A stretch of 64,000 nucleotides of DNA from Eledone cirrhosa (taxonomy: Eukaryota), in assembly GCA_964016885.1 (NCBI GenBank), contig OZ024764.1, positions 15,004,001 through 15,068,000 on the forward strand, read 5' to 3'. Below the pieces are notes generated by a model. It saw only the letters and a list, made by a program, of their open reading frames with translations, ran no database searches and was not told the DNA's origin. The first letter of the stretch is position 1; each line of letters opens with the position of its first letter. This document shows, one piece after another, positions 4,725 through 39,415 of this stretch. The position numbers were made by a program, and so were the translations under genes.

Positions 4725-5392
4725 TTAAAAAAATAATGAATAAAACAATGAAACAGTTTCTTATATTAAACAAAAAAAGTTCATTATTTAACGATCGTTT
4801 CTAGGATATATATGTGTTAGAATTGGCATGCATATTCAACAGATCTATGTACAAAATTATACAAAATTATACAAACTATCAAAATTAAATATACATACCA
4901 ACTCATATATATGCCGTCTTCAGAAATAACGGCATATATATGTGTTGGTACGTATATTTAATTTTGATAGTTTGTATAATTTTGTACATCATCATCATCA
5001 TCATCAGGTTTAGCGTCCGTGTTCCACGCTTGCATGGGTTTGGACGGGGGTTTTCCCACTTGAGGCAAGAGTGGTTGTCTTGCTCGCATAGGACTGTCTG
5101 GCGGGTTTTCTACAGTTGGATGCCCTTCCTAACACCAACCACATTTACAGTGTGGGGCTGGGAGGTTTTTACCGTGTTGCCTACACGGCCACATTACAGC
5201 GTGGACTGTCTGGCGAGTTTTCTACAGCTGGATGCCCTTCCTAACACCAACCACATTTACAGAGATCTGTTAAATATGCATGCCAATTCTAACACATATA
5301 TATCCTAGAAACGATCGTTAAATAATGAACTTTTTTTGTTTAATATAAGGAACTGTTTCATTGTTTTATTCATTATTTTTTTAATATTTTAT
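4725..5392. mobile_element. Fold-back PLE-like element carrying a long-stem-II hammerhead (4784-4929, minus strand); right arm interrupted by an RTE-tail insertion (4988-5260)
   Basis: 4725-4916 is the inverted copy of 4930-4988 plus 5262-5392. Minus strand: TTATTT-CTGAAGA-(~110 nt hairpin)-GAAA-CGATCG-TT-AAATAA. Confidence 0.75.
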
Positions 5393-5711
5393 ATTATATA
5401 TATATATATTTATTATATATATATATATATATATATATATATTTATTATATATATATATATATATATATATATATATATATAATAAATAAATATATATTT
5501 TTACATATATATATATATATATATATATATTTATTTATTATATATATATATATATATATATATAATAAATAAATATATATAAATAAATATACTTCTAAAA
5601 AAGTATATATATATATTTTAAAAACAAACATGTATGTTGAATTATTTAATTAGGTCTTCGAAAAGACATTGTTGGGTTAGAAGAGAGGATAGGACCACCA
5701 TTGTTACCACC

Positions 5712-7255
5712 ATGGTGGTGGTGGTGGTGATGGTGGTGCTGGTGGTGGTGATGGTGGTGGTGGTGGTGGTGGTGGTGATGGTGGTGCTGGTGGTGGTGAT
5801 GGTGGTGGTGGTGGTGGTGGTGGTGGTGTGGTGGTGGTGGTGGTGGTGGTGGTGGTGGTGGTGGTGGTGGTGGTGGTGGAGATGATGGTGATGATGATGG
5901 TGGTGGTGGTGGTGGTGATGGTGGTGATGGTGGTGGTGGTGGTGGTGGTGTTGGTGGTGTGGTGGTGTTGGTGGTGGTGTTGGTGGTGGTGATGATGGTG
6001 GTGGTGGTGTTGGTGGTGGTGGTGGTGGTGGTGGAGGTGGTGGTGATGGTGGTGGTGGTGGTGTTGGTGGTGATGGTGATGGTGATGATGGTGGTGGTGG
6101 TGGTGGTGATGGTGGTGGTGGTGGTGATGGTGGTGATGGTGGTGGTGATGGTGGTGATGGTGGTGATGGTGGTGGTGGTGTTGGTGGTGGTGGTGTTGGT
6201 GGTGGTGGTGGTGGTGGTGGTGGTGGTGGTGATGATGGTGGTGGTGATGATGGTGGTGATGGTGGTGATGGTGGTGGTGGTGTTGGTGGTGGTGGTGTTG
6301 GTGGTGGTGGTGGTGGTGATGGTGGTGATGATGGTGGTGGTGGTGATGGTGGTGGTGGTGATGGTGGTGATGGTGGTGGTGGTGATGGTGGTGATGGTGG
6401 TGGTGGTGATGGTGGTGATGGTGGTGGTGGTGGTGGTGGTGGTGATGGTGGTGATGGTGATGGTGATGGTGGTGGTGGTGGTGATGGTGGTGATGGTGAT
6501 AATGGTGGTGATGGTGGTGGTGGTGGTGGTGGTGATGGTGGTGATGGTGGTGGTGGTGGTGGTGGTGGTGGTGGTGGTGGTGGTGATGGTGGTGATGGTG
6601 GTGATGGTGATGGTGATGGTGATGGTGGTGGTGGTGGTGATGGTGGTGATGGTGATGGTGATGGTGGTGGTGGTGGTGATGGTGGTGGAGGTGGTGGTGA
6701 TGGTGGTGGTGTTGGTGGTGATGGTGATGGTGATGATGGTGGTGGTGGTGGTGGTGATGGTGGTGGTGGTGGTGATGGTGGTGATGGTGGTGGTGATGGT
6801 GGTGATGGTGGTGATGGTGGTGGTGGTGGTGGTGGTGTTGGTGGTGGTGGTGTTGGTGGTGGTGGTGGTGGTGGTGATGATGGTGGTGGTGATGATGGTG
6901 GTGATGGTGGTGATGGTGGTGGTGGTGTTGGTGGTGGTGGTGTTGGTGGTGGTGGTGGTGGTGGTGGTGGTGGTGGTGGTGGTGATGATGGTGGTGGTGA
7001 TGATGGTGGTGATGGTGGTGATGGTGATGGTGATGGTGATGGTGATGGTGGTGATGGTGATGGTGATGATGGTGATGGTGGTGGTGGTGGTGTTGGTGGT
7101 GGTGATGGTGGTGGTGGTGGTGGTGTTGGTGGTGGTGGTGTTGGTGATGGTGGTGGTGGTGGTGGTGGTGGTGTTGGTGGTGGTGTTGGTGGTGGTGGTG
7201 GTGGTGATGGTGGTGGTGGTGGTGTTGGTGGTGATGGTGGTGGTGGTGGTGATGA
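5712..7255 (+). repeat. (GGT/GAT/GTT)n trinucleotide expansion
   Basis: Direct reading. It produces the spurious poly-His and poly-Val ORFs. Confidence 0.97.
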
Positions 7256-8089
7256 CTAAGAGAACGTGCTAAACCACTAAAACTCTTCACAGAAATTCTG
7301 AACATTTCCTTCACATCAGAAATAACACGACATATTTTCTGTTAGCAGAGGCAGCCCCACCCCACACACTGACCCCTGCCCCACCCTCAACACACCTCAT
7401 CTCAGACCCCCCCCCCCCCCCCCCCCCCCCCACCTTATACCCAAAATATAAATAAACCATCTTAGTCGGAGCCTTTTGATGTAGCCAGCTGCTAAATATA
7501 GGTGACTGGAGATGGAGGGTAGGCCATCAGCACCACCACCACCACCACCACCACCACCACCACCACCACCATCATCACCATCATCATCATCATCACACTG
7601 CCATCACCACCATCATCATCACCACCACGACCACGACCACCACCTTCACCACCTCCATCATTTTCACCACCACCACCACCACCACCACCTTCTTGTTTGG
7701 CAGTATCGGTAGAGCGTCAGACGCATAGGTTTGCAGCATAGAGCTACGGCCCTTTATGATCTGAGTTCAAATCCTGCCAAGGTTAACTTTACCTTTCATC
7801 CTTACGGGGTCGATAAAATAAAATACCAGTAATACACTGGGATCGATTTAGTCAACTTTCCCGTCCCCCAAAATTGCTGGCCTTGTGCTTATATTAGAAA
7901 CCACAAGCATGACCCAAGTGAAAGGGCCTGCTCTGAGTATGCGCCTATGAATTGTAGGTGGAGAACTGGGAATTTTTCATTGTTTCAATTTTCATTTTTA
8001 TTGTTTATATATATATATATATATGTTTCTATGTCTTTTTTTTCTTTTCTTATATAAATAATAAAAATCTTTACACGCACAAAACCCAC

Positions 8090-38207: not shown

Positions 38208-38700
38208 AAAAAGGTGCAGAGCACTAGAAGTTGATGGAAACCGCGGAGTGGGGAGACCCAAGATGACCTGGGATGAGGTGATAAAAGCCGACCTTACCCA
38301 ATTACACCTCTCAGAGGCGATGACACACGACCGTGACTTCTGGCGTCACGCAGTAATACAGAGTACCCGACCTCCCATGGGTACAAGCTGAAGCATATAG
38401 ACAATATGCCCCCACACTCCCCACCGCAAGGTGGTCGTGGACGTGCCACGGCAAAAAAGCACCCAGCCCACACTGTAGAGTGGACGTGTAGGCGCCACGA
38501 AAAAGCACCCAGCACTCACTGTAAATGAGGTTGGTGTTAGGAAGGGCATCCAGCTGTAGAAATCAAGCCAAATCAGTTCCTGTATGAGCAAGGCATGGTC
38601 AGCCGACCAGACACTGCCCACAACAGGACAACCCGTCTAACCCATGCTAGCGTGGAAGAACGGACATAAAACGGTGATGATGATGATGATGATGATGATG
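38208..38700 (+). mobile_element. RTE LINE 3' fragment with (TGA)n tail
   Basis: Nearly identical to the reverse complement of 11145-11620. A UTR-only copy lies at 56234-56578(-). Confidence 0.9.
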
Positions 38701-39007
38701 AATACATTAACAGAGAAAGCTTTAAGCAATACTCCGACCGGCTTCCGTCTCACTCAACAAATATTAGGATATACCTTATTATAATCCAATTTTACGTTTG
38801 GGGTGCTAACTACACGTCTTTTGCGGATAGCCAGTTGTACTATTTTATGAGACATAATTAAAATACATCTCTCTTTCCAAACGAACGTTTCATTATAAGT
38901 TTTCTACAAATTGGAAAAATAATGTCCACCTTATGTAGTGTATATATATATATATATATATATATATAGTGTATATATATATATACATATATACATATAT
39001 ATATATA

Positions 39008-39415
39008 AACGTTAGAATATGTGTAATAAGGCCAAGACAATGCAGATATGGACATAGAAAAAAGAATGCAATAGTGAAAGATATTGATGAGAATTCGTCT
39101 TTCACCTTGAATTTATTTAAATGTCCTTAATTTTCGAGATAATATCTCTTCTTCGGAGGGAAGTAAAAGTCTCAGACCAGCGTCTAAATTTCCAATGAAG
39201 CCATGCTTCATGAAGCATGGCTTCATTGGAAATTTAGACGCTGGTCTGAGACTTTTACTTCCCTCCGAAGAAGAGATATTATCTCGAAAATTAAGGACAT
39301 TTAAATAAATTCAAGGTGAAAGACGAATTCTCATCAATATCTTTCACTATTGCATTCTTTTTTCTATGTCCATATCTGCATTGTCTTGGCCTTATTACAC
39401 ATATTCTAACGTTTA
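39008..39415. mobile_element. Perfect fold-back (~200-bp arms, no loop) with an ultra-minimal hammerhead-like motif in each arm (plus strand 39262-39296)
   Basis: Centre ATGCTTCA|TGAAGCAT. CCT-CCGAAGA-A-GAGAT-ATT-ATCTC-GAAA-AT-TA-AGG. Confidence 0.65.

Follow-up and report, generated by a model that had tools for sequence, protein, structure and literature searches.

Endonuclease-bearing (EN+) Penelope-like elements (PLEs; Penelope/Poseidon, Neptune, Nematis and Naiad) are described as inserting with a bias for (TA)n targets and as carrying an inverted 5'-truncated copy and a one-sided tail (PMC8557442). The head-to-head arrangement, with a palindrome at the junction, is the PLE inversion most frequently observed, and there too the one-sided tail is optional (PMC3846280). 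Minimal hammerhead ribozymes (HHRs), for which a type I definition exists, are described in PLEs (PMC6155905), and Naiads lacking an HHR are described from Octopus (PMC8557442). In vitro, the PLE protein PAc, from a Poseidon of Anolis, nicks and extends both strands of AT-rich targets and is predicted to dimerize, and the tail is traced to two start sites of reverse transcriptase (RT) (PMC11167929). Features of the PLE cycle are termed undefined (PMC8557442). A 64,000-nucleotide stretch of Eledone cirrhosa DNA (GCA_964016885.1, contig OZ024764.1, positions 15,004,001 to 15,068,000, forward strand; hereafter the window), very rich in (TA)n tracts, satellites and pieces of short and long interspersed nuclear elements (SINEs and LINEs), contains a series of TA-flanked palindromes that, judged from sequence, are likely head-to-head inverted PLE ends of this known type. 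The palindromes are genuine, and their kind is already known. The arrangement is textbook for PLEs, and its polarity (5' ends joined in the centre, 3' ends facing the flanks), which a preliminary description of this DNA had put forward as a rule shared by all copies, matches the usual published arrangement and is not new. The open point is the route by which the head-to-head arrangement forms, and numerous two-armed inserts that are both young and short are present in this genome.

Self-BLAST of the masked window recovered all eight palindromes of the preliminary description, numbered here E1 to E8 and starting at 4725, 10122, 12420, 12719, 15439, 32141, 32915 and 39008. Their arms match at 130/133 and 51/53 positions in E1, 53/55 in E2, 58/61 in E3, 72/72 in E4, 86/86 in E5, 230/237 in E6, 120/126 in E7 and 206/206 in E8; identity is thus 100% in E4, E5 and E8 and 95-98% in the other five, for which a read fold-back artefact is excluded because the arms are mismatched. 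The centre spacers are 11 nt in E1 (4918-4928), 1 in E2, 0 in E3, 30 in E5, 6 in E6, 20 in E7 and 0 in E8, the centre of E4 being unpaired. Unequal arms, and centres that vary between copies, had been noted before, and comparison within families (spacers 0-30 nt) agrees: E8 is the sole perfect mirror, a 410-bp palindrome, and the arms of E4 and E5 differ in content. Sequence other than TA lies between arm and TA tract in E1 (left, 144 nt), E7 (right, 65 nt) and E8 (right, 44 nt), and the left arm of E6 extends to 32083, beyond the boundary of 32141 first given. Two further inserts of the same geometry, absent from the earlier list, lie at 3697-3932 and 26773-26907; together with the eight and with a family B insert at 34172..34463 (E9), they make up the set of 11 two-armed inserts on which the counts below are based. 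A 117-bp TA-flanked palindrome at 9958-10074, whose centre measures 11 nt and which lacks both an HHR and a relative within the window, was excluded from these counts, and inverted matches at 17480-18023, 45577-47105, 51814-53300 and 53749-55055 were dismissed as separate SINE/LINE or satellite copies.

The sense of the arms was read with a type I HHR descriptor of our own, which found 15 intact motifs in the window, none in the reversed window and one in each of three block shuffles. Given a firm HHR in E1 (left), E4 (left), E5 (left), E6 (both arms), E9 (right) and the insert at 3697 (right), and degenerate ones in E7 and E8, polarity could be read from the ribozyme in 8 of the 11 inserts and was never reversed. 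The claim that ribozyme sense is minus on the left and plus on the right in all eight palindromes therefore holds for six (four firm, two degenerate) and is reversed in none, and the remaining two, E2 (10122) and E3 (12420), cannot be read in this way. As neither has a detectable HHR, their polarity follows from the fixed outer ends only, as does that of the insert at 26773. These three form family A, which scores zero for an HHR on both strands, E2 and E3 retaining only a GAAAC-like piece; the family may have lost its ribozyme by truncation, or may be an HHR-less Naiad. E1 (4575..5390) bears its HHR at 4790-4923 on the minus strand of the left arm, with an intact core starting at 4923, a stem I of 7-8 bp and an unusually long stem II hairpin of 115 nt. 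The degenerate HHRs are found in both arms of E7 (32918..33254), with two core mismatches and a score reached by 6 and 9 of 100 shuffles, and in both arms of E8 (39007..39458), with one mismatch and a score reached by 2 and 0 of 100. The window produced nothing in Rfam at gathering score, and among the 150 of 484 matches listed in a run by E-value there was no hammerhead: 149 were microRNA (miRNA) models on (TA)n or palindromes, and one was a chance match to a viral untranslated region. The centre of E6 (32310-32458) reaches 73 bits against a miRNA model, below that model's cut-off, and in annotation the palindromes are better classed as PLE-derived than as miRNA hairpins or miniature inverted-repeat transposable elements (MITEs). 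When six short stretches from HHRs or family A were folded by free energy (seven folds; z -0.9 to 0.3), the results were no better than shuffles and neither support nor refute the assignment; E1 alone folds strongly (z -4.8). A covariance model from ten one-armed HHRs was abandoned when the GAAA halves stayed unaligned in MAFFT.

Minimal type I hammerheads are accordingly present, by sequence, in E1 and in families B, C, D and E. No open reading frame (ORF) of the PLE type, with RT and GIY-YIG, was found by Pfam in 123 of the window's 129 listed ORFs, or by motif, the pieces being too short to hold one; since no PLE protein was found, the assignment to PLEs rests on ribozyme type and architecture. 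In this the window differs from the described EN+ PLEs, as it holds only pieces of 130-560 nt without an ORF. Animal non-LTR retrozymes are likewise short, non-coding HHR pieces related to the pseudo-long terminal repeats (pLTRs) of PLEs, but they are described as tandem direct arrays (bioRxiv 10.64898/2026.07.22.740005), whereas the pieces here are dispersed and inverted. Of the partial tandem (direct) pLTRs that EN+ PLEs can show, none was seen in the window, and one tandem joint appeared in reads from another run (below). TA-targeting MITEs and fold-back DNA transposons share the palindromic look and the TA flanks; they differ from the present inserts, which have asymmetric termini, variable centres, one-armed truncated copies and a ribozyme as cargo. 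Because the centres differ from copy to copy, one-armed copies are common and the ends are not mirror images, the inserts are not MITEs, as the preliminary description had held; mirror-image termini with constant length and centre were not found. A target-site duplication would be masked by the (TA)n on either side, and no empty allele came to light.

The outer ends add a regularity. Each of families A to E has two recurrent ends in the sense orientation, 60-99 nt apart, called here short and long. In family A the short end is used by E2 left, E3 right, 26773 left and the one-armed copies at 31970 and 53600, and the long end (+80 nt) by E2 right, E3 left, 26773 right and, approximately, 59680; hence E2 (10125..10311) has its short end on the left and E3 (12423..12624) on the right. 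In family B the short end is found in E4 right, E9 right and a one-armed copy at 3969..4146 (minus strand, on (TA)n), and the long end (+89) in E4 left, E5 left and E9 left. A third family B end coincides with the HHR cut site, directly after AUAUAUAUA (positions 15579, 15780 and 61921), where two insert ends are located: E5 right and a one-armed copy at 61796..61921 (plus strand), which also terminates in (TA)n. At these ends, use of a cut RNA end would look the same as TA microhomology. Family D has its short end in 3697 right and at 17758 and its long end (+96) in 3697 left and at 40883; family C has its short end in E6 right only and its long end (+60) in E6 left and, within about 10 nt, at 3635. 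Family E consists of one-armed copies only, one at 1533..1762 (minus strand, HHR core at 1716) with the long end (+99) on (TA)n and a sister at 4288-4418 (plus strand) that terminates at the short site. All eight two-armed inserts with family relatives combine one short with one long end (p = 0.004 under an independent 50:50 choice for each arm), and E1, E7 and E8, with 144 nt (the probable tail at 4575-4718), 65 nt and 44 nt past one arm, match the pattern without a confirming relative. The unequal arms are thus the known one-sided tail, produced from two fixed start sites per family, and the termini are fixed yet not MITE-like. The tails here are 44-144 nt, against 30-40 nt in the EN+ PLEs described, for which strict short/long pairing and a constant direction of stagger are unstated in the portions of the sources consulted. 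TA microhomology alone does not choose the short site, because each of the eight arms tested offers between 1 and 33 sites with an equally good match. The short site is likely a true priming site, because it is also the terminus of one-armed copies (31970, 53600, 3969, 17758 and 4418) and of reads in two other samples.

In six of the 11 inserts (E1, E2, E3, E6, E7 and E8) one arm is nested inside the other, with centres of 0-20 nt, and in the other five (E4, E5, E9, 3697 and 26773) the arms are staggered, each containing sequence missing from the other, so that neither is a copy of its partner. In all five, the extra 3' sequence belongs to the tailed arm, and it is the arm without a tail that extends further in the 5' direction. 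The end of the tailed arm lies about 7 nt past the short site in the 26773 insert (which has 8-9 nt of filler and the long end in its right arm), 20 nt past it in the family D insert (3700..3932; a minus left arm with the long end and a plus right arm with HHR 3853-3894 and the short end), whose arms overlap by only 20 nt, and 59 nt before it in E9; in E4 and E5 it continues far beyond. E4 (12720..13102) comprises a minus left arm with the long end and an intact HHR at 12858-12907, and a plus right arm with the short end and a further 5' reach, from which about 43 nt, including CUGAAGA, have been deleted; its arms match each other at 93/93 positions, against 121/131 for the nearest paralogue. 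E5 (15440..15780) joins a minus left arm with the long end and an HHR at 15579-15628 to a plus right arm that supplies the 30-nt centre, retains core and stem II and terminates at the cut site, with a 2-nt AT microhomology at the junction. E9 joins a 30-nt minus arm from the long end to a plus arm (HHR 34364-34413) running to the short site, with no overlap. The region 34150-34465 had been suspected of being a ninth case with an internal deletion, and it is indeed a two-armed family B insert. Its plus arm is 99-100% identical to E5; because that arm has a different end and extends 5' beyond the point at which E5 turns, the sequence of E9 fits an inversion with non-overlapping arms better than a version of E5 that has lost its interior, although a later deletion is conceivable. 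A CT-rich stretch within it (34202-34285) is a candidate, not confirmed, for family sequence.

Reads from other samples extend these observations to family B. Four of 23 listed runs were compared with the left arm of E5. In two other samples 30,502 and 33,558 raw reads matched this arm; they are reduced-representation short reads, whose counts give no genome-wide frequency. Of these reads, 8,010 and 9,081 run from the short end directly into (TA)n, and 1,961 and 1,563 depart close to the long end, where they enter AT-rich sequence of mixed composition. The bias for (TA)n is thus seen in reads as well as at insert ends in the window, and under a second organism label (X5) the same short end appears in two contigs. 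Joints at which the strand changes are uncommon: five rows represent four distinct places and some 75 reads altogether. In three of them (15522/15642-3, 15564/15643 and 15643/15643) the shorter side measures 28-36 letters, with only 22 reference letters above 15643; because this side is too long to lie 5' of the fold, both pieces lie 3' of it, and from this geometry, the table of joints being without direction, we infer a head-to-head arrangement. At 15522 to 15642/3 the tailed arm stops near the short site. The joint at 15547/15547 (15 and 10 reads), where alignments break toward the 3' side, is probably tail-to-tail, contrary to the polarity described above, and perhaps reflects two copies in one TA tract. 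The contigs of run X1 contain one tandem joint, 15636 to 15579, at depth 629.

Given these patterns, the account best supported, though unproven, is a version of the earlier proposal that both strands of a cut (TA)n target prime reverse transcription: the inserts would be truncated PLE ends for which the two nicked target strands primed at two sites of probably one RNA, the resulting complementary DNAs (cDNAs) then likely being joined through their truncated ends, and the chances of this being correct are about even. Staggered arms and short/long pairing argue for it, and outward-facing 3' ends are to be expected if both strands prime, because a target-primed arm has the RNA 3' end at its flank. 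RT at the short site, the upstream one, would lead; RT at the long site, the downstream one, would stop near the short site (26773, 3697 and 34150) or would displace the first cDNA and stop near the same 5' point, leaving a long palindrome with a centre of 0-30 nt. PLE RTs are not known to carry RNase H, which makes such displacement plausible. Joining would proceed through short microhomology or filler, and second strands would be supplied by host repair. With a single RNA as the presumed common template of both arms, this scheme covers nested, staggered and non-overlapping forms as well as the pairing. A more specific form, to which we give somewhat less than even odds, places an RT-endonuclease dimer at two fixed sites of one RNA, with one site primed per nicked strand, and would explain the inverted pLTR together with the one-ended tail; if true, every two-armed insert should have one short and one long end, and its tail-less arm should lead 5'. 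In family B, the end left by ribozyme cleavage, (UA)4 in sequence, is a possible third start site. PAc offers a biochemical parallel, although in the parts of that report consulted no link to inverted pLTRs is drawn. HHR cleavage is dispensable there (PMC11167929), whereas in family B the cut site, itself a TA-like run, coincides with two of the ends found here.

A second parallel is L1 twin priming with 5' inversion, reportedly described by Ostertag and Kazazian. There, too, a single RNA is primed from two target ends, the 3' ends point outward, and a deletion or slight overlap marks the junction (as in E9, 3697 and 26773); in the present inserts, by contrast, each family has a fixed second site, and overlaps of 55-250 nt between the arms are frequent. 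Neither the pairing rule nor a single-RNA, two-site model was found stated in the literature searched, older subscription papers lying outside that search, and the pairing is a modest, testable lead on the open mechanism: a simple count of it, and of the direction of stagger, could be enough to tell twin priming from self-priming with no laboratory experiment.

Several considerations weigh against priming from both strands. The six nested inserts would be the direct product of priming at the long site alone, after which a truncated cDNA folds back, copies itself (cDNA snap-back) and becomes attached to the second end of the target close to the short site; centres of 0, 0, 1, 6, 11 and 20 nt, three HHR stem I bases of E1 that are complementary across its centre and the identical arms of the youngest inserts all suit such a route, and a later one-sided central deletion of the palindrome could yield the staggered cases. 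In family A, moreover, arms within an insert are no closer than arms of different copies (E2 left/E2 right 50/52; E2 left/E3 right 52/54), and the probable tail-to-tail joint in reads also counts against it. The sample, too, consists of 11 inserts from one window chosen by eye and self-BLAST, and no PLE RT or GIY-YIG match turned up among the ORFs searched with Pfam, from which six near-identical tandem-repeat ORFs were excluded. Self-copying is the main rival and would likewise yield head-to-head polarity, though with nested arms only, and it seems a possible but less likely explanation: it requires a second event in five of 11 inserts, in some of which the arms are still 100% identical, it leaves unexplained why second arms end at the site used by one-armed copies, and the short/short palindromes expected from priming at the short site were seen in none of eight.

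Other routes appear more doubtful still. Self-priming on an antisense RNA template is the published account of head-to-head junction palindromes (PMC3846280) and is compatible with the retention of introns by PLEs, but it accounts neither for non-overlapping arms (E9) nor for sense 3' ends fixed on TA, and the single PLE examined in vitro extends the nicked strands of its target along an RNA that covers the pLTR-ORF junction (PMC11167929), so that it is improbable here. Two separate RNAs, or two successive insertions, one per strand, would be conceivable in a family as abundant in reads as family B and with a probable tail-to-tail pair among them; the arms, however, share a family in 11 of 11 inserts and a subfamily in E4 and 26773, their 5' ends are tightly coupled and short/long pairing is strict, which renders this slightly less probable again. 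Least credible of all are the terminal inverted repeats of a MITE, or artefacts of fold-back that arose during sequencing or assembly. Outer ends that repeat to the base and the perfect palindrome of E8 recall them, and against them stand variable centres, unequal ends, 5'-truncated one-armed copies, arm mismatches of 2-5% in five of eight palindromes and the presence of family B ends in other samples.

Further details complete the catalogue. The right arm of E1 is interrupted at about 4987-5257 by a later (CAT)n-tailed LINE/SINE piece, and a copy of its probable tail at 41700-41850 ends exactly where the E1 arm starts; next come a fold-back of 10 nt and a satellite of 65 bp. E6 (family C, 32083..32640) has HHRs at 32283-32317 (minus) and 32451-32485 (plus), a 60-nt left tail and a 6-nt centre; in E7 the 20-nt centre derives from the right arm, and the probable tails of E7 and E8 lie on the right. 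Five more one-armed HHR pieces, from other families, are found at 17292-17361, 27465-27505, 33758-33788, 40091-40137 and 40961-41010. A tRNA-type SINE at 58063-58300 has its own head-to-head 5' inversion, with an 18-nt centre, so the polarity is not confined to PLE pieces. A (CAT)n-tailed LINE piece at 11438-12472 (minus strand) includes a 345-residue open frame with a PHD-finger match (E 1e-6), and satellite arrays with units of 48 and 127 bp, at 19700-25700, 29950-30500 and 52250-53430, have grown from the 3' region of a (CAT)n-tailed LINE/SINE family. At the end of the window, positions 63171-63998 on the plus strand hold the first part of an ORF for a rhodopsin-family seven-transmembrane receptor (E 9e-12).

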